Of a stretch of DNA of 64,000 bases, positions 2,308-40,764 are shown piece after piece. Below the pieces are notes generated by a model that saw nothing but the letters and a program-made list of their open reading frames with translations, was not told the DNA's origin and did no database searches. The position numbers and the translations under genes are program-made. This DNA is from an uncultured Candidatus Binatia bacterium (GTDB taxonomy: Bacteria > Desulfobacterota > Binatia > Bin18 > CBDCRK01), in NCBI GenBank assembly GCA_965220955.1, contig CBDCRK010000037.1, forward strand, positions 58,928 to 122,927, in the 5' to 3' direction. The stretch's first letter is position 1. Each line of letters begins with the position of its first letter.

Positions 2308-3082
2308 TATGGATTTGGGTCTCAAGGATCGAGTGGCCATTATCACTGGTGGCAGCTATGGCATTGGACAAGCAGTTGCGCAGCATCTAGTCCAAGAAGG
2401 AGCTAAGGTGGCTATCTGTGCCCGGCACGCAGAGCAGTTGGAGCGTACAGCCAAGGAACTGGAGCCTAACGTACTAGCTGTACAGGCGGACATTACCCAA
2501 GCGGAGGATATTGCCAAACTGTTTGACCAAACACTGGGCAAGTTTGCTAGGCTGGATATCCTGGTAAATAACGCCGGGGGCACGCACCTGAGCCAACTCC
2601 TAGACCTACCCGACGAAGCCTGGCAGGAGATTATTGATACCAATCTGTTTAGCGTTATACGTTGCTCGCGCCTAGCGATCCCACACATGAAGAAACAAAA
2701 GTGGGGACGGATTATCAACATCTCCTCGATATTCGGCAAACAGCCCGGTACCGGCATGATCGACTATAACGCCACTAAGGCAGCAGTGATCAGCTTAACC
2801 AAGACTCTGGCCGATGAATTGGCTAAGGACAATGTCTTGGTTAACGCGGTCTGTCCAGGGCCGGTGCGCACACCCCTATGGCAAGAGGCAGCCAAGATAA
2901 TCAATCCGCAAGACCCAGAAGGCATGATAGCCGGCTTTGCTGCCGCTAACATTCCTATGGGCCGGTTTGGCCGGCCGGAGGAGATAGCTAGCCTGGTAAC
3001 ATTTCTTGCCTCAGAGCGGTCGAGCTTTATCACTGGCGCAGCCTATGACATTGACGGTGGCATGGTGAAATATATGGTCTAG
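2308..3082 (+). CDS. SDR family oxidoreductase (3-oxoacyl-ACP reductase-like)
   Basis: TGGSYGIG Rossmann motif, NNAG, catalytic S...Y..K (YNATKAAV); RBS GGAGGA upstream of the ATG at 2308. The longer ORF call from 2045 is probably a 5' overextension. Confidence 0.8.
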
Positions 3083-3675
3083 GTGACATGCCAAGTGGAG
3101 GTATAAAACAGATGCCCTTGGGTGACATTTTCTATAAAGCCGGCTGCCTGCAACTCACGCCGCAGGGCACGGCGTGTTACAAAGTCAGGATCAGGAAACT
3201 GCTCAGAAACGGATAGACGGCCCCCAGGACAAAGTACCCGGCGGATCTCAGCCAGCGCTTGTGGACGATCTGGTATCTCGCCCAGTACGGCGATGAGAAA
3301 GACATGATCGACTGAGTCAGACCGTAGTGGGAGCATAATCGCGCTGGCCTGGACGAAGCCGGCGTTGTCTTGACCGGCCACAAGGATCCGGCGTCGGACC
3401 TCAAGCAGCATGTCCCGCTGGATGTCAAGGCAGGTCAGGCGTCCTCTCTCTCCAACACGACGTGTCGCCTCAAGGGAGTAATAGCCGATCCCCGGCCCAA
3501 TCTCGAGCACGCGCTCGCCCTCCGCCAGCCCGAAGGCGCCAAGAATCTGCTTGGGGCCCGCAACGAGCACCCGCAGCGGTGACTCCAGGACAGCCGCATG
3601 CGAGAATGGACAGGGCATGGGCTCCAGCCTCCTCCAAAGGCGGTCCCACCAAGCACGAATAAGAGACTTAGCCAT
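3079..3675 (-). CDS. Class I SAM-dependent methyltransferase
   Basis: Methyltransf_11-like motif (VLEIGPGIGYY...LDI) in a 198-aa ORF; start could be the internal Met (MPCPFSH). Confidence 0.6.
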   Translation of the reverse strand: MAKSLIRAWWDRLWRRLEPMPCPFSHAAVLESPLRVLVAGPKQILGAFGLAEGERVLEIGPGIGYYSLEATRRVGERGRLTCLDIQRDMLLEVRRRILVAGQDNAGFVQASAIMLPLRSDSVDHVFLIAVLGEIPDRPQALAEIRRVLCPGGRLSVSEQFPDPDFVTRRALRRELQAAGFIENVTQGHLFYTSTWHVT

Positions 3676-3853
3676 CGAAAAACCTCTATGAGGAAATGAT
3701 CTCCCTTGGGTCGACGCTTATCATTCTCCGCTTGATAAGACCAACAGCACTGTTTGTTATGAATTCACCGCTCTGTCACCGGCCAGACAAGGCCGTCAAG
3801 GCTCTAGTTGGAACGCTAGCATAGAGTCGATTTTGAGATGAGGCCAGGATCGT

Positions 3854-3883
3854 TTGACTTGCAGGAAGGGGCGTGCCTATAAT
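3854..3883 (+). promoter_or_regulatory. Near-consensus sigma70-type promoter (TTGACT-18 bp-TATAAT) upstream of the amidohydrolase gene
   Basis: TTGACT at 3854-3859, 18-bp spacer, TATAAT at 3878-3883; a duplicated tattcaaaaa motif follows in the 5' UTR, then RBS AAAGGAGG. Confidence 0.5.
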
Positions 3884-3941
3884 TCGGCAGTAAGAATCTT
3901 AATGTATTCAAAAATATATTCAAAAAAAGGAGGATTAGTCT

Positions 3942-5048
3942 ATGGCTTATCGTATTATTTCAGGGGACTCCCACTTTGTTGAACCCCCTGGCATGTGGGC
4001 CGAGCGCATGGACAAGAAATTCCGCGACAGGGCTCCGCACACCATAAAGGGGTATCAGGGAAAAGAGGGAGAATTTTTTGTCTGTGAGAATATTACCCCC
4101 ATTGCCGTGGCCGGGTTTTTTGGCTCGGGCAAAAGCTCTGAAGAGCTGCCCGAACACAACCGACACGGATTTGATGTGGCCCCAGCTAGCGTCTGGGACC
4201 CGGCTGCACGGCTGAAAGAGCAAGAGAGGGATGGGGTAAGCGCGGAGGCACTCTATACTTCTATGGGCATGATGCTCTTTGGTCTGGAGGATGCTGAACT
4301 ACGGACGGCCGCTTTTCGAGCGTTTAACGACTATGCAGCAGAGTACTGCAGCTATGACCCCAAGCGTCTGGCAGGGCTGGGCGTGATTACCTTAGAGAGC
4401 ATCCCGGCTGGGGTGGAAGAGTTAAAACGGTGTGCCCAAAAGGGACTAAAGGGTGTGCTTATCTGGGGAGCCCCGCCTGAGGATAAACCCTACAGCCATA
4501 GGGACTACGACCCCTTCTGGGCGGCAGCCCAGGACCTGAATATGCCCCTTTCCCTCCATATTCTCACCGGTCGGCGGGGAACAGGAGTCAGCTTTGACCT
4601 ATCAAACATCCTCCACGCCTACATGGCTCTGCCCCAGGAAATCCAGCTCACCCTGGCAAACATGGTCTTTGGCGGCGTGTTCGAGCGGTTTCCCAGGCTA
4701 AAAATTGTCTCCGCTGAAAACGATGTTTCCTGGATTCCCCACTTCATGTACCGTATTGACCATGCTTATGACCGCTTGCGCCATTTTGAGGGAGTCACCC
4801 TCCAGATGATGCCCAGCGAGTATGTCAAACGGCAGGTCTGGGCGACTTTCCAGTTTGAGGATGTATGGATTGATCTGCGCAAGCGCTATGCGCTAGACAA
4901 ACTGATGTGGTCCTCGGACTACCCACACACCGATTCCCCCTGGCCTCGCTCCAAGCAGTGGATCGAAGAACATTTCACAGGGGTACCTGAGAACGAGTTG
5001 GCCGAGGTAGTTGGCGGCAACGTTGCTAATCTCTACGGGATTGCTTAA
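3942..5048 (+). CDS. Amidohydrolase-2 family metal-dependent hydrolase (ACMSD-like)
   Basis: 368-aa ORF with strong RBS; N-terminal ISGDSHF..EP and C-terminal WSSDYPH motifs typical of Amidohydro_2. Confidence 0.7.
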   Translation: MAYRIISGDSHFVEPPGMWAERMDKKFRDRAPHTIKGYQGKEGEFFVCENITPIAVAGFFGSGKSSEELPEHNRHGFDVAPASVWDPAARLKEQERDGVSAEALYTSMGMMLFGLEDAELRTAAFRAFNDYAAEYCSYDPKRLAGLGVITLESIPAGVEELKRCAQKGLKGVLIWGAPPEDKPYSHRDYDPFWAAAQDLNMPLSLHILTGRRGTGVSFDLSNILHAYMALPQEIQLTLANMVFGGVFERFPRLKIVSAENDVSWIPHFMYRIDHAYDRLRHFEGVTLQMMPSEYVKRQVWATFQFEDVWIDLRKRYALDKLMWSSDYPHTDSPWPRSKQWIEEHFTGVPENELAEVVGGNVANLYGIA

Positions 5049-5071
5049 ACGGCGTTAACGACTCTCTGTCA

Positions 5072-5106
5072 AGGGAGAGGGTAGAGACCCTCTCCCTTTC
5101 TAGTTT
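5072..5106. terminator. Rho-independent-type hairpin between convergent genes (amidohydrolase + / cytochrome c' -)
   Basis: Perfect 10-bp stem (agggagaggg / ccctctccct) with a 6-nt loop, followed by a T-rich run (ttctagttt). Confidence 0.5.
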
Positions 5107-5132
5107 GGTGAACACATCCCTATGACTATAGC

Positions 5133-5621
5133 TTATGCCTTCTTCTCCGGCTTGCGGAACTGGTCATGACAGCTCTTGCACGCGCCAAAGACCTTCCTTA
5201 GCTGAGCACCAGCGGTCTCAGCTTCACCGTTGACCGCCGTTTGGGCTAGCTGATCAGCCTCAGTGCTTAGCATTGTGGCCGATTTGACAAAGTCTTCCCA
5301 CTGCTGCCAGATTTCTGCCTTGGCCCGGGAACTATCCGAAGTGCTCCCCTGGGGAAAAAGCTCAGCAATACGGGTAGAGTGGAGCGCAATAGCCTGGGCG
5401 TTGACCGCCATCTCCGCTACCCGGCCACCGTCAAGCTTGGCCTTCATGGCCTTGGCATTCTCGCCAATGTTCTCCATTAAGTAATGACGAAAGTTAATGG
5501 AGTCTTTAGCCTTAGGAAGGCCCTTGGGGTGGTCGTGATCTCCATGCGCAATAGAGCCTGTGCTATAAAGCAGCCCAGCAGCACCAAGAGCAAGAACTAA
5601 ATAAGAAAGAGATAGCTTCAT
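5133..5621 (-). CDS. Cytochrome c' (class II c-type cytochrome)
   Basis: Signal peptide, four-helix-type sequence with a single C-terminal CKSCH heme-binding site; RBS GGAGGAGGA precedes the internal ATG (MKLSLSYLV), so the start is set at 5621. Confidence 0.65.
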   Translation of the reverse strand: MKLSLSYLVLALGAAGLLYSTGSIAHGDHDHPKGLPKAKDSINFRHYLMENIGENAKAMKAKLDGGRVAEMAVNAQAIALHSTRIAELFPQGSTSDSSRAKAEIWQQWEDFVKSATMLSTEADQLAQTAVNGEAETAGAQLRKVFGACKSCHDQFRKPEKKA

Positions 5622-5649
5622 ACCTGTCCTCCTCTCCGTCAGTGTATTT

Positions 5650-6552
5650 TTATTTGCCTTCAACCACATAATGAATCGGCGGGACACTTTTGAGATAGGC
5701 CGCCACTGCCCTGGCATCTTCACGTGTCATATCCTTGTACCCTACAGGTAACCCATCGACAAGCAGGGCCATTAATCCCTGCACATTGTCCGCATTGGGC
5801 TTAAATCCCGTACGCAAGAGGTCGGCAATATCGCGCTCGCTCCAGTCTCCAATTCCGGTCTTTTCATCAGGAGTAATATTGGGAACAATCTCGCCATCTA
5901 CCCCTTCAGCATTGCCCGCAAGGTAAAGAGAATCTTCCAGAGTGCCTGTGACTTTACGTGGGGTATGACACTCGCCACAGTGAGCCACATGCTCGGCAAT
6001 GTATTTCCCTCGTTCCACTCCGGATTCCGGCGCTTGTCGAGAAGCAGAAGCCGGAGAGAAGAAGAGCCAGCGCCATATCCGCATCAGGGTTCCAGAAAGC
6101 GGGAGTTTCATCTCATGGGGTTTGTTTTCTTGGGCAATTGGGGGAAGACTGAGCATATAGACAACCAGAGCCTTCACATCCTCGTCTGCCATGCCACTAA
6201 AAGCGGGGTATGGCATCACCGGACTGAGACGCTCTCCGTTTGGTCGTACACCCAGGCGAATAGAATCGATAATCTCCTGGTTGGTCCATTGGCCAATACC
6301 GTAGGTTGGATCTGACGTGACATTAGTGCCATAATAGGTACCCAAAGGCGTTTTTGTTGGCCGACCTCCGGCGTTTAGCGGTCCTCCCTCTGCCGTGTGA
6401 CATCCACACCCTCCGGCAAGCGCAAAAACATATTTTCCCTTTTCCACCAAGCTCTGGCTGGCTTCTTGGGCAAGGGTACAAGGAGGGAGAGCCCCCCCCA
6501 GCAACAAGATCAGAATAAGAACCCACTTTTTTTTATGCCTTAGACACCGCAT
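5650..6552 (-). CDS. Diheme c-type cytochrome
   Basis: Signal peptide plus two CxxCH motifs (CGCH, CGECH) in a 300-aa ORF. Confidence 0.7.
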   Translation of the reverse strand: MRCLRHKKKWVLILILLLGGALPPCTLAQEASQSLVEKGKYVFALAGGCGCHTAEGGPLNAGGRPTKTPLGTYYGTNVTSDPTYGIGQWTNQEIIDSIRLGVRPNGERLSPVMPYPAFSGMADEDVKALVVYMLSLPPIAQENKPHEMKLPLSGTLMRIWRWLFFSPASASRQAPESGVERGKYIAEHVAHCGECHTPRKVTGTLEDSLYLAGNAEGVDGEIVPNITPDEKTGIGDWSERDIADLLRTGFKPNADNVQGLMALLVDGLPVGYKDMTREDARAVAAYLKSVPPIHYVVEGK

Positions 6553-6696
6553 TGTGCCGCTCTTTGGTCCCCAGTTGTTTATCTAGTTATTTATGAGGAA
6601 GGTTGAGGTTTTGCAAGCAGGTCTTGAGGGAAGAGAAGTGGCGAATCTAAGCAACACAATCTTTGAGATAACTCGGGCACTTCTGCATAAGAAAAC

Positions 6697-7140: not shown

Positions 7141-8181
7141 CTACCTAGCCAGTTCCTGACGAATAATGTGCGTCCCAGCCACCAGTGCCTGCAGCTTGGC
7201 TTTGGCAATAGGGCGTGAAGAAGCCGAGAACCCACAGTCCGTGGTCAGGTAGAGTTTTTCCGGCCTGACATGCTTAAGCACAACTCTAATCCGTTCAGCT
7301 ACATCTTCCGGGGTTTCCAAGTACATAGACTTTACATCCACCACTCCGGCTGCAAGCTCGCGGTCATCGCCGAATTCACTCCAAAGGTCGATTTCAGCCA
7401 TTTCCCGGTTGGCAAATTCCAAGGCGAACTGATCGGCCTTGACAGCAAGAACACCTGGAAACAGGGGGCGATAGGTCCGCTTCATTGCCGGTCGACCTTG
7501 GTTGTTACCAAAGCAGATGTGTAGTGCAATCTTGGCTTTTACTCCATCGATAGTACGGTTAAACAGCTTCACCGTTTCCTCTACGGGAAGCGCGGGCTGA
7601 CGGCCTGCGGCCGAGGGTTCATCAATCTGGATAAAATCTGCCCCAGCTGCTACCAGCTGCAACAGCTCGCGGTTAACCAGCTCGGCAATGTCATAGGAGA
7701 GCGCAAGATAGTCTTCTGCTGTATATCCGGCCTTGGGGGTAATAGGCATGGTGAGGGTGAGCGGCCCAGGAGTGCAAATTTTTATGGGATTTTTTGTCAA
7801 GGTGCGCACAAAGGTAAATTCCTCAACTAGCCCCAATCCATGGGGAGCTGAAACGCGCTCCGTAGTCTCGAACCTAGGGGCACTATCATAGCTCATTACC
7901 CCCATTTTGCGCTGGGCGGGGACAATCTTGAGCCCGCCCAGCCTCTCCACTATATTCCAAAGAAATCTCTGGCGGCGCATTTCGCCGTCAGTAAGGATGT
8001 CCAGCCCGGTCTCCTCCTGGTCACAAACCGCCACCCTGACGGCATCTTGTAAGGCTTCTTCTATGTCGGCTGGGCCAAAATCGCCTGAGCGCAAGGCCCG
8101 GCGTGAGGCAAACAGCCATGATGGTGAGGCATAGCTTCCCACTCCCATAGTGGGAAGAAGAGTCTGAGCGTCTGGTGCCAT
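7141..8181 (-). CDS. Cobalamin-independent methionine synthase (MetE C-terminal domain-like, Meth_synt_2) family protein
   Basis: 346-aa ORF with MetE-like motifs (IQIDEP, HICFGN, TTDCGF). Confidence 0.7.
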   Translation of the reverse strand: MAPDAQTLLPTMGVGSYASPSWLFASRRALRSGDFGPADIEEALQDAVRVAVCDQEETGLDILTDGEMRRQRFLWNIVERLGGLKIVPAQRKMGVMSYDSAPRFETTERVSAPHGLGLVEEFTFVRTLTKNPIKICTPGPLTLTMPITPKAGYTAEDYLALSYDIAELVNRELLQLVAAGADFIQIDEPSAAGRQPALPVEETVKLFNRTIDGVKAKIALHICFGNNQGRPAMKRTYRPLFPGVLAVKADQFALEFANREMAEIDLWSEFGDDRELAAGVVDVKSMYLETPEDVAERIRVVLKHVRPEKLYLTTDCGFSASSRPIAKAKLQALVAGTHIIRQELAR

Positions 8182-35464: not shown

Positions 35465-36013
35465 GATGAGGCTCACAAGATGAGGAGGACTTTTTCTCTA
35501 TTCGGCTTTTTTCAAGCTGGGAGACCAAAGGAGGGAGAAGGGGGCGAGCGACGAAAGAACGGCCTTCCACAGTGGGGGGAGGAAGGGCTGAATAATCGGG
35601 CGGGGTGTCTACGGGCGCCCCGCGGGGTGGAGTAATTAGTTGCTTAATGTGATGGGCATACGAATCGGGTGTGTATGCGAGATGCCATAGATAACATGAG
35701 GCGCCGCAGATTTGGCCACCTTCACTTCCTTGGGTTTCACCTGAGGAGTAATGTGCAGGACAAAGCCATTGCGAGCTGTGAGAAAACGCTGGGGTTTCTG
35801 CGAAGATTGTTGCTGATCCATAGACTATGTTTCTGCCTCATAAAAAATTAGCGTCCGAGGCTGGTAGTCAAGCGCTTACCTCGTCTGGCTGACAGCTGGC
35901 TTCCGACCGCTGAGTCTTTACATAGCATAGTCTTCACTCACCTCCAACTGCTTGCAAGCTACACTACTCCAGTTTATGCTAGGGACAGCAAACAGAGCCG
36001 AAGGAGATTGACA

Positions 36014-36667
36014 ATGGGATTGTCAGATGAGCTGCGCCAGAAGCACGAGACACTGTGGGAAAAAATGGTCATGCATTCGTTTGTCCGAGAGCTGGGTGAG
36101 GGTACGCTGCCGGCAGAGAAATTTATCACCTACTTTGTTCAGGACTATACTTTCCTGGTTGACGCAACCAAGATGATGGCCCTGGCTATTTCCAAGGCGC
36201 CCGATGTAGAGGCCGCACAAAAAATTTCTGCTTTTCTCAATGCAGCGATTACCGGGGAGGAGAGTCTTTTTCGCCGGGGCTTTGAGGAGCTGGGCGTACC
36301 TCCTGGAAGATACACTGGAGCAGAGCTACTTCCTACGGCTCTGTCCTATGCCAATTTCCTTCTGCGCACTGGTCATGAGGGAAGCTTTAACCAGATCCTG
36401 ACAATTCTTATGGTTGTCGAATGGACCTATCTCGATTGGGCAAAGAGGCTGGTAGCACAGGGGAAAAAACCGGTAAGAAAAGTGTATCAGGAGTGGATTG
36501 ACATCCACGTTGCACCAGCCCTGGAAGAGTTTGTTGGCTGGGCAAAGGAGCGAATTGACAACAGTCCAGTGGGCGAGCGAGCGTCTATCGAACAGACATT
36601 TTTAGTTACGCTCCGCTACGAATACCTCTTTTGGGATATGGCGTACCAAGGAGAAAGCTGGCCCTGA
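36014..36667 (+). CDS. TenA/Thi-4 (thiaminase II / heme-oxygenase-like) family protein
   Basis: TenA-like helices (FVQDYTFLVDA, WTYLDWAKR); RBS AAGGAG 7 nt before the ATG at 36014. Confidence 0.7.
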   Translation: MGLSDELRQKHETLWEKMVMHSFVRELGEGTLPAEKFITYFVQDYTFLVDATKMMALAISKAPDVEAAQKISAFLNAAITGEESLFRRGFEELGVPPGRYTGAELLPTALSYANFLLRTGHEGSFNQILTILMVVEWTYLDWAKRLVAQGKKPVRKVYQEWIDIHVAPALEEFVGWAKERIDNSPVGERASIEQTFLVTLRYEYLFWDMAYQGESWP

Positions 36668-36767
36668 GAAAGTCACTGCTGCTCGGCTGAGCTTGCAACT
36701 CAGTCCAAGCCAAAGGTTCACCAGGTTTACAAGGAACCCTGCGGGAACCCCTTCGGAATGCTTTCTC

Positions 36768-37064
36768 TCAATGTCCGATTTCTTCCTCAGAGTTTTCCTC
36801 AATTGCTCCTTCAGCCTGATCGAGGAGGAAGCTCAGCTCACGTAGAGCCTCGTTCATGTGATAGGCTACAGCCAGCAGGGAGCCATAGGCAATCTCTTCC
36901 GTGTCGTGTAGCTTTAGGTGGTCATTGACCATAGAGAGAAGGCTACGCATTTGTTCTTCAGCGTCATAGAGGTGCTCACAAAGACCCATGGTTCCCTCCC
37001 GACCCTGACCTATAAGGCCAAGAAGCATTGATTTCACCATAAGGGAAAAGACTAACAAGGGCAA
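36768..37064 (-). CDS. Small hypothetical acidic protein
   Basis: 98-aa ORF (likely start at the internal ATG giving ~90 aa); no RBS or recognisable domain. Confidence 0.3.
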   Translation of the reverse strand: MPLLVFSLMVKSMLLGLIGQGREGTMGLCEHLYDAEEQMRSLLSMVNDHLKLHDTEEIAYGSLLAVAYHMNEALRELSFLLDQAEGAIEENSEEEIGH

Positions 37065-37154
37065 GGGTAGATCCCTATCCCTCTACTTTTACATAGCCAA
37101 TCGGTGCTTTAGAAAAATCCCACATTGGTACCTTTTGGCAAACGATCTTGCTGA

Positions 37155-37292
37155 GCACCCGGCCTGCCCGTCCCGGCCATTGGGGCGGTGCTCTGGCATG
37201 CCTCGATGGAGACGACGGCTGGCTATGCCAAAGTCGATTTGCCCTTGCTCCAGCAAGTGGCCCAACCCTGGCCGGAGGTGGCGCCATGTTGA
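37155..37292 (+). pseudogene. C-terminal tail fragment of a tyrosine recombinase
   Basis: Short frame ending ...LWHASMETTAGYAKVDLPLLQQ..., matching the extreme C-terminus (LGHAS..TT..Y..V) of phage-integrase-family proteins; nothing upstream. Confidence 0.45.
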
Positions 37293-38030
37293 TGACCGCA
37301 GTCGATACCTACTTAGCCGTACGGCGGGCGGCAGGCTTTCAACTCAACCATCTTGAGGCCTATTTGCGCAGCTTCGCCCGCTTTATGCACGCGGAGAACC
37401 CGCGGCATGAGATCCCCCCCGCAAACCCTCTTCTGTGGGCGGCGCCAGCAACCGACCCCCTATATCTTTAGCGAGGCGGAAATCCAGCGCATTGTGGCTC
37501 ACGCGCGGCAACTCAGTCCCTTGGATTCGCTGCGGCCCTCTACCTACAGCACCCTGTTTGGTCTGCTCGCTGCCACGGGGATGAGTTGCGCGGAAGCTCG
37601 GGCGCTCCAGCTCAGCAATATCACTCCGGCTAGAATCCTCATCCGGGAAAGCAAGTTCAAGAAAAGCCGACTGCTCCCGCTGCACGACACAACCTGGGTG
37701 GCCCTGGAGGGCTACCTCGACCGGCGGCGGCGAGTCGCCGGCCACGATCCGCACCTGTTTGTCTCCCGCCGCGGCGGCAAGCTCTCTCACACCATCGTGG
37801 CCGAAACCTTCCATGCGGTAGTGCAAGCAGCTGGCGTTCCGAGTGAGCCAGGCAAACCCTGCCCCCGGCTCATGGACCTCCGGCATATCCTCGCCGTCCG
37901 CGGGCTCGAGACGTGTCTCGATGGCCGCGATCAAGTCCTTCATGCACTTTCCGGAGTACCGCGTCCCGGCCCACCTGGAGCAGATTCGCTAGGCCCTGGC
38001 CATCCCCGCAAAAAAACCAGCAGCCCCTGA
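37286..38030 (+). pseudogene. Tyrosine recombinase / phage-integrase family gene disrupted by at least two frameshifts
   Basis: N-terminal SAM-like domain (MLMTAVDTYLAVRRAAGF..LEAYLRSFARF) in one frame and the catalytic domain (IRESKFKKSRLLPLHD..HLFVSRRGGKL..LRHILAV) in another; the C-terminal HxxR..Y region shifts again. Confidence 0.6.
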
Positions 38031-38090
38031 TCCCGCATCTCTCCCTCACAGAATGTTAAGCTTGGCATCAACGAGGAGGAATTTTATCGC

Positions 38091-38633
38091 TTGGCGGATG
38101 AAAACAGCGATGGAGAGTACCTTGACGGAAGGATTGTCATGCATTCGCCTGCCTCAAATCGGCACGAGGATACTTCCCGTTTTCTCCTCACCCTCCTGAG
38201 CGCCTACCTGGATGAAAAAAGAGCAGCGGTGGGGCGCGGCTCCCGTTATCCGAGGCGTCTCGATGCCAGCTGGTCCCCGGAGCCTGATATCCTGGTAGTC
38301 CGCAAGAGTCGCCGGCAGCTTATGACGTCCCGCCGTTTGGAAGGGCCCGCCGATATGGTCATCGAGATCGCTTTGGAGAGCGACCCCAGGCTGGACTACC
38401 GTGAAAAGCTCCCACGCTATCGCCAGGCAGAGATCGAGGAGATCTGGATCATCAATCCCTTCGAGAACGATATCCTGGCGGAGGTAAAAACAACGGCCGG
38501 CTACACCACGCAGGTCCTGTCCTCGGGACAGCTAAGGTCCAAGGTACTGCCCGGTTTCTGGATCGAGGTCTCCTGGTTCTGGCAGGAGGAGTTGCCGCCA
38601 ACGCTCAGGTGCCTACGAGAAATCATGCAATAA
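38091..38633 (+). CDS. Uma2 family (DUF820) putative endonuclease
   Basis: EYLDGRIVMHSPA...PDILVV...EIALESD...Y..A.IEEIWIINP pattern of Uma2/PD-(D/E)xK; the frame stays open ~20 codons upstream without an ATG, so the start is uncertain (TTG at 38091). Confidence 0.6.
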   Translation: MADENSDGEYLDGRIVMHSPASNRHEDTSRFLLTLLSAYLDEKRAAVGRGSRYPRRLDASWSPEPDILVVRKSRRQLMTSRRLEGPADMVIEIALESDPRLDYREKLPRYRQAEIEEIWIINPFENDILAEVKTTAGYTTQVLSSGQLRSKVLPGFWIEVSWFWQEELPPTLRCLREIMQ

Positions 38634-39514
38634 TTCCTTAGTAGAGAGGAATAATCCCTTTTGCCCATTCTCATCCCTGTCCATCTCTTTCTTATAGGGG
38701 TGCCTATAGTCTCGGAAAGATAGCAATTCGCTAAGCGCCTGGTGGCTGTATTCGGACTCTGAAATCACCAGCCCGGCCAGAAACGCACCCAAGGCCAAAG
38801 AGAGTCCAGCTTGCGCTGTTACCCAGGCAGTACCCAACCCCAGAAGCAAGATACTAACTAAGAAGAGCTCACGGCTGCGCGTACGTACGACCTGATACAA
38901 TACCGTGGGGACAAGGTAACGGGTGGCAACAAGCACCAGAACCAGGACCCCCCCGCTTTCCCTACGACTACAAGCACAGGTTCTGATCCTTGAGCTCCAG
39001 CACCGGCTAAAAACGGAACCAGCAACATCATCAGCACAACGCTAAGATCCTGAAGAATTAGGATGCCTAGTGCAGTACGCCCCTGGGGACTATCGAGAGT
39101 AGCTTGCGCTGCCAGGAGCCTTACCACAATGGCAGTGCTGCTCAGAGAGATAAGGAAACCAAGGAACACAGAGGGGCCCATCGGCTGGCCCAACACTTGG
39201 GCGAGCACAAATACCACTCCTACCGTACCCAACACCTGCAGCGTCCCGCCCAGAAGCACAGCTCGCCGGATGAGCATAAGCTCCCGGAGGGAGAATTCGA
39301 TGCCAATGGTAAACAGCAGCATAACAACGCCAATTTCGGCCAGGACTTCAACTTCCTGCACCGCGGCGATCAGCTGCAACCCATGCGGACCAACTAGAAC
39401 TCCGATAAAGAGAAACCCCACAATGGTCGGTAACCGCAGGTAATGGAAAACAAAGAGGACCCCTAGGGACAAGCCAAAGATAATAATCAAGTCTGTTAGA
39501 ATATGCACTTCCAC
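38613..39514 (-). pseudogene. CPA2 (KefB/KefC-type) cation:proton antiporter membrane domain, frameshifted and truncated
   Basis: ORFs 38858..39514 and 38613..38936 together cover the Na_H_Exchanger TM domain with a frame change near 38900-38940; no C-terminal KTN/RCK domain. Confidence 0.55.
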
Positions 39515-39925
39515 ATTGGGCTCCTATCAACAGAGGAAGGGAGACCGGTATACCCCGAGCAAAGTCATTTGGCAAATGTCAGGGGTCGAGCAGCCCCGCG
39601 GCCGGAGCTAGCAGGAAATTGGATCTCTCGTCAATAGCCTCACTGGACGCTCTTGCTATCGAGTGCGGTCGCGGGCCGAGAGAGTTCTGAGTAGCAACTA
39701 TAGGCCAAAAGAGAGGCCAGTAGAACTCTACAGGTTCACTGATGGTAAGTAGGGGAAAGGGCTATTGTAAGCCAACCAAAGAAGAAAGACCGACAAGAAG
39801 GACCGCTGGACAAGCAAAAAAATTAGAGTTCTTCTGACTTGAACTCATAAGCCACCTCACTTTCTGTTCTTAGTATTGTATTTTCATCAAGAAGAGAAGG
39901 GGGTTGTGTAAGTTCGTATATAATT

Positions 39926-39960
39926 CCCAAAAAAATAGGGGCGCAAAACCTTGCACCCCT
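39926..39960 (-). terminator. Rho-independent terminator of the hsp20 gene
   Basis: On the minus strand, a 10-bp GC-rich stem (AGGGGUGCAA/UUGCGCCCCU) with a GGUU loop followed by a U7 run. Confidence 0.65.
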
Positions 39961-39980
39961 ACCCTTAGCCCAACGGCTGC

Positions 39981-40445
39981 TTATTTAGCCTCAATAGGAA
40001 TCTGTCTGGTTGTCTTAGCTTTGGGGGCAGGCAGAGAGATATCCAAGACTCCGTCGTGATAGCGAGCGCTGACACCATCGGCGTCCGTTCCCTCAGGCAG
40101 AGGTAGACTGCGCTCAAAACGCCCATAGCGCACCTCACGGTAGGCATAATGGCTCCCGTTCCCAGTGTGCTGATGATCAACTTTGCGCTCGCCCTTAATA
40201 GTGAGCTGATCATTAGCCACCGAGACCTCCACATCCTTGGGATTCACTCCCGGCAGATCGGCCTTTATAATCAGCTTATCTCCCTCCAGATAGCTCTCTA
40301 CCGAAGGATACCCATCGCCAGAGCGGAACCACACAGGAAGATCTCGCTCCCAATTTCCAAAGAAATGGCCAAAGAGATTATCCATTTCCCGGTGAAAGGG
40401 AGAAAATTCCTTAAAAGGTTTCCACAGCACTAATTCACTCCTCAT
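39981..40445 (-). CDS. Hsp20 / alpha-crystallin family small heat-shock protein
   Basis: Alpha-crystallin domain (DLPGVNPKDVEVSV...GVLDISLPAPK); RBS AGGAGGTGA; TTGACA-16-TAATTT sigma70-like promoter upstream. Confidence 0.85.
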   Translation of the reverse strand: MRSELVLWKPFKEFSPFHREMDNLFGHFFGNWERDLPVWFRSGDGYPSVESYLEGDKLIIKADLPGVNPKDVEVSVANDQLTIKGERKVDHQHTGNGSHYAYREVRYGRFERSLPLPEGTDADGVSARYHDGVLDISLPAPKAKTTRQIPIEAK

Positions 40446-40764
40446 AACTTCTCACCTCCTATACGTTTTTTTCACCTCTTGTCACTTTTAAATTAAGCAT
40501 CATCCAAATGCTGTCAAGGGAAATGCGGCCCCATTATTCGTCCCTTTTATGGGGCAGCTAAGGCGAAGGTCTCCCCTGGCTCCTCACTAGACCTCCCTAC
40601 CTTGCTAGCAATAAATAAATAGAGGAAACTAGGGGGCACTTGCTGGAGCTAGCGGAAATTTTTAGTGAAACCACATTCGCAATCCGCTTTATCCAAACAA
40701 TGAAAGAGAACGGCTAGAGGTAGTATTGCTGTAGCTGAAAATGTGACAACCAAAGGGGAATAGT

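Follow-up and report, generated by a model that had tools for sequence, protein, structure and literature searches.

The first description of RIT (recombinase in trio) elements came from Cupriavidus metallidurans CH34 (Van Houdt et al., 2012, PMC3414803), and they are also treated by Ricker et al. (2013, as cited in PMC8138268). They are defined by three adjacent genes that overlap (ritA, ritB and ritC), with overlaps of 4-8 bp (PMC3414803; PMC8138268), and predominate in alpha- and beta-proteobacteria (PMC3414803). For the element ends, palindromic repeats measuring 47 and 51 bp have been reported (PMC5737581). Intact elements are ~3.4 kb long, with the gene order ritA-ritB-ritC and terminal inverted repeats of 28-81 nt in relatives. 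The intact trios used here for comparison came from metagenome contigs (L002, L003 and L008) and from plasmids of Ochrobactrum and Sinorhizobium meliloti. Their three genes lie on one strand, encode proteins of 386-413, 303-305 and 329-350 residues, and overlap by 7 nt (A/B) and 4 nt (B/C).

The region at 37075-39514 of the window (the whole 64-kb stretch of DNA that was analysed) is the dead remnant of a known RIT element amid truncated host genes. An earlier note on this DNA had reported a run of broken genes between the TenA gene and hsp20, which is real and correctly placed, and had read it as the scar of a decayed mobile element; that reading is borne out by fragments of RitA, RitB and RitC, all non-functional. 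What each fragment is, how far it extends and in which order the fragments lie could be established, and they are listed here by position in the window.

37075-37164, minus strand: host gene X, last 29 codons and stop codon, cut at the junction with the RIT element (alignment with L093)
37161-37292, plus strand: RitA remnant, C-terminal 43 codons and stop codon (tblastn with RitA of intact trios)
37286-37937, plus strand: RitB remnant, residues 1-258 of ~303 (profile of 108 full-length homologs)
37373-37384, plus strand: scar of a 108-nt in-frame deletion in the RitB N-domain (single repeat copy, CTTCGCCCGCTT)
37414-37420, plus strand: C7 homopolymer, site of the RitB +1 frameshift (frame restored by removal of one C)
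37922-38053, plus strand: RitC remnant, residues ~79-128 of ~330, part of the N-terminal domain (tblastn, DNA alignment)
38054-38633, plus strand: Uma2 (PF05685) gene without its start codon and first 11 codons (Pfam, orthologs, DNA homology)
38634-38710, no strand assigned: 77-nt AT-rich spacer from the Uma2 stop codon to the antiporter breakpoint (GC 0.43)
38709-39514, minus strand: CPA2 (KefB/KefC-type) antiporter pseudogene, codons 1-269 only (Pfam, L092 ortholog)

Fragments of RitA, RitB and RitC

A homology search had been suggested to place the recombinase frames in a subfamily. When run, it assigned them to RitA, RitB and RitC, each fragment matching no protein of an intact trio, plasmid trios included, other than the one in the same place. 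The fragments come from three genes and not, as originally proposed, from two head-to-tail recombinases. With RitA proteins of intact trios as tblastn queries, residues 344-386 (L008) or 371-413 (L002/L003) aligned to 37161-37289 at 67-74% identity, with E-values of 1e-14 to 7e-16; the tail also scored E about 1e-16. The part upstream of this tail, ~340-370 codons, is missing. The tail ends in AVLWHASMETTAGYAKVDLPLLQQVAQPWPEVAPC followed by the stop codon and includes the conserved-tyrosine region TTAGYAKV; this tail with the tyrosine is all that RitA keeps. Its TGA and the RitB ATG overlap by 7 nt (ATGTTGA, 37286-37292), in agreement with the recombinase tail of ~45 residues and the 7-nt stop/start overlap seen previously.

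The homologs of RitB are 303-residue proteins that share 61-65% identity with it across 97% of the query (tblastn E 4e-83), and the remnant matches Pfam Phage_integrase at profile positions 4-139 of 172 (E 5e-12). A family profile was built from 108 full-length homologs. It matched positions 1-33 and 69-87 in the frame that opens at 37286 and positions 84-258 in the next frame (298 bits), the latter, the core frame, containing the box II LRH motif; positions 259-303, the tyrosine region, had no match to this profile in any frame. By this profile the second recombinase is split over two frames, rather than three as had been thought. The third-frame piece (37906-38053) was rejected as the RitB C-terminus because the profile was silent there; read earlier as a recombinase HxxR/Y C-terminus, it is by tblastn (E 9e-12 to 1e-10) part of the N-terminal domain of RitC, residues ~75-128.

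Three further lesions were located within RitB. L008 and L001 each hold the repeat GCTTCGCCCGCTT twice, 108 nt apart, and in the window these have collapsed into a single copy, with the sequence left of the first running into the sequence right of the second. This deletion removes 36 internal residues, and 45 more are lost from the C-terminus. When one C is taken out of the C7 run, the frame reads HEIPPQTLFCGRRQ, matching the family consensus heippeelfcgrrq. The Arg of TGMR (catalytic Arg-I), 100% conserved in the family, is replaced by Ser (AGT, 37584-37586). RitB differs from the family at 6 of the 72 columns with at least 95% conservation, this Arg among them; these changes indicate relaxed constraint, as do the stop codon in RitC and its 2-nt deletion.

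For RitC, residues 75-128 of the proteins from L008, L002, L003, L005, L089 and L090 aligned to 37888-38053 (tblastn E 9e-12 to 1e-4). DNA alignment placed the switch from RitB to RitC at GGCCGCGATCAAGTC (37922-37937), where the sequence is similar in both genes, the RitC piece being fused to RitB through a deletion of ~387 nt. The fragment spans the N-terminal domain only, and carries an in-frame TAG at 37990-37992 and the 2-nt deletion beside an A7 run at 38010-38016. Pfam returned no significant family for this stub, nor for orf98.

Comparison with intact trios bears out the resemblance to 'recombinase in trio' units that the earlier note had raised. The likeness consists of three tyrosine-recombinase fragments in the order A-B-C on one strand (here the plus strand, as remnants rather than whole genes) and of an identical A/B overlap: its 7 nt equal those in L001, L002, L003, L008, L089 and L090 and lie within the 4-8 bp that define the family. 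The locus differs in that both ends, most of RitA, the tyrosine region of RitB and most of RitC are deleted, as is the B/C junction. No terminal inverted or palindromic repeats were found anywhere in the window, both element ends being gone, and the catalytic Arg ... His-x-x-Arg ... Tyr set is not present in all three proteins. The surviving pieces (RitA codons ~371-413, RitB codons 1-33 and 69-258, and RitC codons ~79-128) amount to ~0.9 kb of ~3.4 kb, about a quarter of an element. The locus is thus a RIT remnant and not a complete member of the family. With no terminal repeats and with RitA, RitB and RitC all crippled, it is unmistakably dead and incapable of recombining DNA. The GC content of the recombinase segment is 0.637, against 0.526 for the window, which points to a foreign, high-GC origin of the element; that of the Uma2 gene is mildly raised (0.57).

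Truncated genes flanking the recombinase fragments

On the left side, the only collinear relative was L093, from a related organism (77% nucleotide identity), which aligns with the window at 35727-37164 and diverges after that. In L093 a minus-strand ORF ending in RQDIRESQIFKDNEGRVLTKVIPKKVQAWDFSKAPIGYVKAEG and a stop codon runs off the end of the contig, which stops 44 nt beyond the breakpoint. The window keeps GRVLSKIVCQKVPMWDFSKAPIGYVKVEG and the stop codon, 72% identical, as the stub of gene X in a stretch that looks intergenic. No Pfam family was found for the stub. The genes around the scar are housekeeping genes (DciA, ribonucleotide reductase, TenA, Hsp20, RmlC, DsbA and MoeA). When 185,579 species genomes were scanned, the best relatives of TenA were Chloroflexi/Dehalococcoidia MAGs with 54% identity, and the number of neighbouring genes shared with the best match was zero.

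The Uma2 gene was previously described as intact-looking. Its family was correctly recognized: the Pfam match to PF05685 (formerly DUF820; putative restriction-endonuclease-like) covers positions 2-171 of 172 with E 3e-25 and 89.1 bits (gathering cut-off 27), a full-length domain. The gene itself is 5'-truncated, unlike its orthologs, which are 203-residue proteins of a well-populated subfamily with 84-85% identity. DNA homology to the ortholog in L173, which sits in an unrelated context, starts at GTTAAGC (38054, about codon 12) and ends just past the stop codon. The 5' end is joined directly to the RitC fragment, and the start codon is lost: possible starts are internal only (TTG 38091 and ATG 38139), with no ATG, GTG or TTG upstream of TTG 38091. 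We also considered Uma2 as a mobile cassette and rejected this; at least 17 contigs with one close homolog share a single context, and no evidence of mobility was obtained. The 77-nt spacer that follows had no match in the RIT loci, in L173 downstream of Uma2, or in L092.

Beyond the spacer, Pfam confirmed the KefB/KefC-type antiporter with an internal frameshift and no RCK domain, as two minus-strand ORFs that match Na_H_Exchanger at positions 4-192 and 185-259 of 375. The frameshift lies in a G7 run (C7 on the plus strand, 38948-38954). L092, from a related organism, encodes at the same position an intact 665-residue Na_H_Exchanger+TrkA_N+TrkA_C protein beside rmlC, of which residues 1-189 and 186-269 match the window in two frames with 87-88% amino acid identity, and nothing beyond. 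In comparison with KefB/KefC CPA2-RCK antiporters, therefore, the copy here keeps the N-terminal 269 residues, is cut within the membrane domain and is frameshifted; truncation after codon 269 of the 665-residue ortholog also accounts for the missing RCK domain, since codons 270-665, which include both RCK domains, are deleted. Because the ortholog in L092 is intact and adjoins rmlC, the antiporter is an ancestral host gene and not cargo of an element. Past the antiporter, L092, the relative on the right side, has different genes and no hsp20.

Deletion junctions and origin of the locus

Four junctions could be checked against relatives, and all fall at microhomologies of 2-15 nt, which argues for illegitimate deletions:

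Host/RitA junction: shared GGCC
Within-RitB junction: 12-14-nt repeat
RitB/RitC junction: imperfect repeat of ~15 nt
RitC/Uma2 junction: TG

We consider it probable, at roughly 85%, that a RIT element entered this core chromosomal region and was then eroded by microhomology-mediated deletions and point decay. A foreign, high-GC element would have inserted somewhere in the interval bounded by gene X on one side and by the gene for a KefB/KefC-type CPA2-RCK antiporter on the other, and serial microhomology-mediated (illegitimate) deletions plus point decay would have whittled the region down. The same or similar deletions would have taken both element ends and the 5' part of gene X, as well as the start and first 11 codons of Uma2 and antiporter codons 270-665. 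No genome with an intact RIT element at this position, or with an empty site, was recovered; it is for this reason that we infer insertion in situ followed by decay, and likewise the initial presence of an intact element and the order of the deletions.

The outer junctions could also have arisen by capture, and it is only in the origin of these junctions that capture differs from decay in situ. Short stretches of a RIT copy and of a Uma2 gene that lie at other sites in the genome would then be filler DNA taken up in error-prone break repair, through microhomology-mediated end joining at a break that destroyed the 5' part of gene X and the 3' part of the antiporter gene. Each junction is indeed an abrupt intragenic break with just 2-15 nt of microhomology, element ends and target duplications were not found, the Uma2 ortholog of the relative L173 occupies an unrelated locus, and the spacer is without a match in the compared loci. 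The RitA, RitB and RitC pieces, however, are collinear and retain their native order and native 7-nt overlap, and both internal deletions amount to simple loss of the DNA between repeats, for which a once-contiguous element is the simplest account. The stop codon, together with the frameshifts and the change from Arg to Ser, speaks for a pseudogene of long residence. We therefore regard capture as unlikely; were it true, templated or captured filler insertion would have in this locus a natural, clearly resolved bacterial example.

A classical integrative element, whether a prophage, an integrative conjugative element or an island, is a highly improbable source of the region; its integrase would be of the lambda type, inactivated at an attachment site, and Uma2 and the antiporter would be its cargo. 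The Pfam Phage_integrase match and the raised GC of the recombinase segment and, mildly, of Uma2 would fit such an element, but the closest homologs (60-74% identity) are members of RitA/RitB/RitC trios and not single arm-binding integrases, and the antiporter, orthologous to the intact gene beside rmlC in L092, is host DNA. The window contains no tRNA gene, the neighbours are housekeeping genes, and flanking direct repeats were not found beyond chance-level matches of 13-20 nt. Of the insertion boundaries and attachment-site repeats that a syntenic comparison had earlier been proposed to define, none survives. Scans for attachment-like repeats, tRNAs, Rfam families, promoters and terminators gave nothing informative. 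A possible second integrase at 997-1218 (weak tblastn match, E 0.008) falls in an ApaG-domain gene and is spurious, and apparently duplicated flanks around the hsp20 block proved to be no real duplication.

Less probable still is that the recombinase and antiporter genes are intact in the organism, their breaks having arisen in homopolymer runs through errors of sequencing or assembly. Both single-base frameshifts do lie in plus-strand C7 runs (37414-37420 and 38948-38954), 7-nt C runs being a classic site of sequencing error, and the antiporter copy of a close relative (P0241) lacks the G7 frameshift and reads through the second run. Correction of both runs would nevertheless leave RitA as a 43-codon tail, RitB short of its catalytic Arg and of 36 internal and 45 C-terminal residues, RitC as a stub of 50 codons interrupted by a stop codon, Uma2 startless, and the antiporter without codons 270-665. 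Vanishing frameshifts could thus not rescue the genes, since the large deletions and truncations would persist. Of the 22 other homopolymer runs of at least 7 nt in the window, most sit within long ORFs that are not interrupted. Another public assembly, L091, was built separately; it is gap-free and 99.994% identical to the window over 16 kb, and shows the identical sequence here, although it may go back to the window's own reads and would then be no independent check on the two homopolymer frameshifts. This identity, and the different frameshift that P0241 carries downstream in its antiporter, argue against an assembly artefact.

Implications for annotation and for the RIT family

Insertion of a RIT element followed by its decay bears chiefly on annotation. 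The remnants should be marked as pseudogenes (ritA', ritB', ritC', uma2', the CPA2 antiporter remnant and the 29-codon gene stub), and annotation of the region as integrase, endonuclease and antiporter genes would be wrong. The locus is unfit as evidence for an active integrative element or a genomic island. Beyond annotation its importance is little: the scar is a product of ordinary genome decay and no new system, and the element type is already known. The host lies outside the alpha- and beta-proteobacteria, where RIT elements were reported to predominate (PMC3414803), and the remnant indicates that these elements have reached this poorly sampled lineage. It also provides a clean, base-resolved case of a RIT element and its neighbours eroded by microhomology-mediated deletions.

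A degenerate trio of tyrosine recombinases

Between the genes for TenA and Hsp20, ORF listing and three-frame translation left orf98 as the sole intact gene. GC content was 0.63-0.65 over 37250-38000, versus ~0.53 in the surroundings. The genes around the scar (DciA, class II ribonucleotide reductase, TenA, Hsp20, RmlC, DsbA, MoeA and glutamate dehydrogenase) are housekeeping genes, which rules out a large genomic island. The main features are:

36008-36667, TenA gene
36768-37064, minus strand, orf98, a conserved ORF of 98 codons
37075-37164, minus strand, gene stub (last 29 codons), the 3' end of an ORF in L093, a left-flank metagenome contig from a related organism
38634-38710, AT-rich spacer of 77 nt between Uma2 and the antiporter
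39981-40445, minus strand, hsp20

Neither a tRNA gene nor an Rfam match above the gathering score was found in the 64-kb window; a thiamine riboswitch, perhaps to be expected in the 540-nt leader upstream of TenA, had no Rfam match there.

An earlier note had described two recombinases resembling a recombinase in trio (RIT) element, the tail of the first overlapping the start of the second by 7 nt. The same ORF listing and translation confirmed the overlap: the tail (ending in AVLWHASMETTAGYAKVDLPLLQQVAQPWPEVAPC before its stop) finishes at 37292, its TGA overlapping the next ATG (ATGTTGA, 37286-37292). The proposed homology and profile searches then identified the subfamily as RitA/RitB/RitC, with remnants of three genes rather than two. 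The reconstructed second recombinase had ~1,500 homologs, the best of 303 residues with 61-65% identity at 97% query coverage. Their contexts were uniform, each lying between two further tyrosine-recombinase genes on the same strand (386-413, 303-304 and 329-331 residues for genes 1, 2 and 3), with overlaps of 7 nt between genes 1 and 2 and 4 nt between genes 2 and 3, so the RIT resemblance was correct. Many trios lie on 3-3.6-kb contigs (L002-L008), as expected of a repeated mobile element. Plasmid tblastn searches returned 536 records, chiefly from Rhizobium, Sinorhizobium, Bradyrhizobium, Agrobacterium and Sphingobium, with some from Cupriavidus; the two plasmids inspected (Ochrobactrum CP061776 and S. 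meliloti NZ_CP021803) carry trios with identical 7-nt and 4-nt overlaps.

Of RitA from intact trios, only the last 43 residues align, at 37161-37289 (tblastn; 67-74% identity, best E 7e-16). For RitB, a profile of 108 full-length homologs was run on all six frames. Positions 1-33 and 69-87 matched the frame starting at 37286 and positions 84-258 the next frame (298 bits), while 259-303 matched none of the six; RitB therefore occupies two frames, not the three claimed. The third-frame piece was rejected as a RitB C-terminus, since RitC residues ~75-128 align there, to 37888-38053 (E 9e-12 to 1e-4, tblastn with six RitC queries). Pfam Phage_integrase covered just profile positions 4-139 of 172 on the central frame (E 5e-12).

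The lesions can be read against intact elements. RitB positions 34-68 are gone through a 108-nt in-frame deletion: GCTTCGCCCGCTT, present as two copies 108 nt apart in intact elements, occurs once in the window (37373-37384), joining the outer flanks. The RitB frameshift comes from a single additional C within a C7 run (37414-37420), and deleting one C restores HEIPPQTLFCGRRQ. The catalytic arginine of the TGMR motif, 100% conserved, is a serine, one of 6 alterations among 72 nearly invariant columns. In DNA alignment RitB switches to RitC at GGCCGCGATCAAGTC (37922-37937), similar in both genes, which implies a deletion of ~387 nt. The RitC stub is interrupted by an in-frame stop (TAG, 37990-37992) and has lost 2 nt next to an A7 run.

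Terminal repeats of intact relatives

Terminal inverted repeats of 28-81 nt bound intact relatives of this subfamily:

L008, 4611-4641 / 7957-7987
L002, 1-81 / 3377-3457
L003, 89-129 / 3425-3465
L090 (S. meliloti plasmid), 1431-1458 / 4768-4795

The L008 element spans ~3.4 kb between perfect 31-nt repeats. Short motifs recur inside such repeats (e.g. TTATGGAA, twice in L008) and are plausible candidate recombinase-binding sites. No similar terminal repeats occur in the window, and no attachment-like direct repeats, which the earlier note had suggested seeking, were found around the scar.

Other copies vary. The metagenome contig L001 holds another decayed RIT (2730-6588), with RitA in two ORFs, RitB intact and, at the expected RitC position, a 537-residue ORF without Pfam domain that may be an insertion sequence. 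On the Ochrobactrum plasmid (L089), 309-nt inverted repeats that are 97% complementary and include two DUF736 genes (1300-1608 / 5074-5382) enclose the RIT, which looks as if it were nested in a larger palindromic duplication.

Flanking genes and the reality of the lesions

L093 is collinear with the window over 35727-37164 and then diverges (TenA 82% amino acid identity; 77% nucleotide identity overall). It shares orf98 (71% amino acid identity, no Pfam match), whose conservation suggests a real small gene of unassigned function adjoining TenA. The 29-codon stub, absent from the earlier note, corresponds to a minus-strand ORF running off the L093 contig. Host sequence meets RitA at a GGCC common to both sides.

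The ORF after the recombinases matched Uma2 (Pfam, E 3e-25). Its closest homologs (203 residues, 84-85% identity) align to nearly the whole stop-to-stop frame, and DNA homology runs from about codon 12 (38054) to just past the stop codon. There is no start codon upstream of an internal TTG at 38091; the gene, previously thought intact-looking, is 5'-truncated. TG is the only sequence shared at the RitC/Uma2 junction, and the ortholog in contig L173 has an unrelated genomic context. The AT-rich spacer matched neither RIT loci, L173 downstream of Uma2, nor L092, a right-flank contig from a related organism. This Uma2 subfamily (P0245-P0363; L173, L174-L181) is unusually conserved over many metagenome contigs, with 66-85% identity among 120 listed matches; one member is flanked by a TilS-like gene on one side and a short Cas1-domain ORF on the other, a context recurring in 8 samples.

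Na_H_Exchanger (Pfam, 375 profile positions) is divided between two minus-strand ORFs, one matching positions 4-192 and the other 185-259. In L092 (7.3 kb, ~84% nucleotide identity), a gene divergent from rmlC, at a distance of 128 nt, encodes a complete 665-residue Na_H_Exchanger+TrkA_N+TrkA_C protein. Two window frames align with residues 1-189 and 186-269 of that protein (87-88% identity), and nothing beyond 269 has a counterpart in the window. By comparison with this gene, the antiporter is an ancestral host gene that lost its 3' 60%, including both RCK domains; the frameshift and missing RCK domain had been noted rightly, its assignment to the element wrongly. The related contigs thus place breakpoints at 37164 and antiporter codon 269. 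A ~1.07-kb hsp20 block (39515-40587), its edge exactly at the antiporter start codon, is missing from L092, where the region upstream of rmlC runs directly into that codon; this absence reflects insertion in the window lineage or deletion in that of L092. No flanking duplication was found around the block.

The antiporter frame changes within a G7 run (C7 on the plus strand, 38948-38954). A second public assembly (L091), separately built from run ERR13605531, aligns without gaps over 16,003 bp at 99.994% identity, and may share the window's reads; both homopolymer frameshifts are also present in it. P0241 (261 residues, 5.54-Mb ENA contig) is almost identical to the antiporter fragment; it stays in frame through the G run and shifts ~40 codons later, so the gene is decaying independently in a close relative. 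The window's 22 other homopolymer runs of at least 7 nt lie mostly within long open frames, so no general homopolymer problem exists. The two frameshift sites (37414-37429 in RitB, 38948-38963 in the antiporter) have similar 16-nt contexts, CCCCCCCGCAAACCCT and CCCCCCCGCTTTCCCT, which could be coincidence, slippage-prone sequence or sequencing bias. Even if both single-base frameshifts were erroneous, the truncations and the 108-nt and ~387-nt deletions would leave every gene non-functional.

Origin of the scar

The most economical account is RIT insertion followed by illegitimate deletions and point decay. A horizontally acquired, GC-rich RIT element would have landed in the interval, which would then have undergone at least five illegitimate deletions, removing the RIT ends, most of the RIT gene content and portions of three host genes, and later point decay. 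All four junctions with reference sequence lie at microhomologies of 2-15 nt. The main alternative, capture of the fragments as filler while a break was being repaired, is less likely: the A-B-C pieces are collinear, the native overlap is retained and there are signs of long decay. Filler capture would in any case alter only the origin of the outer junctions.

The earlier observation was thus largely borne out, with its recombinase, Uma2 and antiporter details corrected. RIT mobility is still to be demonstrated experimentally (PMC3414803); raised mobilome coverage and palindromic ends have been reported and hairpin intermediates proposed (PMC5737581). With ~0.9 kb surviving of an element that is ~3.4 kb in L008, and with both ends and every complete recombinase gone, the remnant cannot join any RIT mobility reaction. 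The locus is an ordinary one: the element type is known and this copy is dead.
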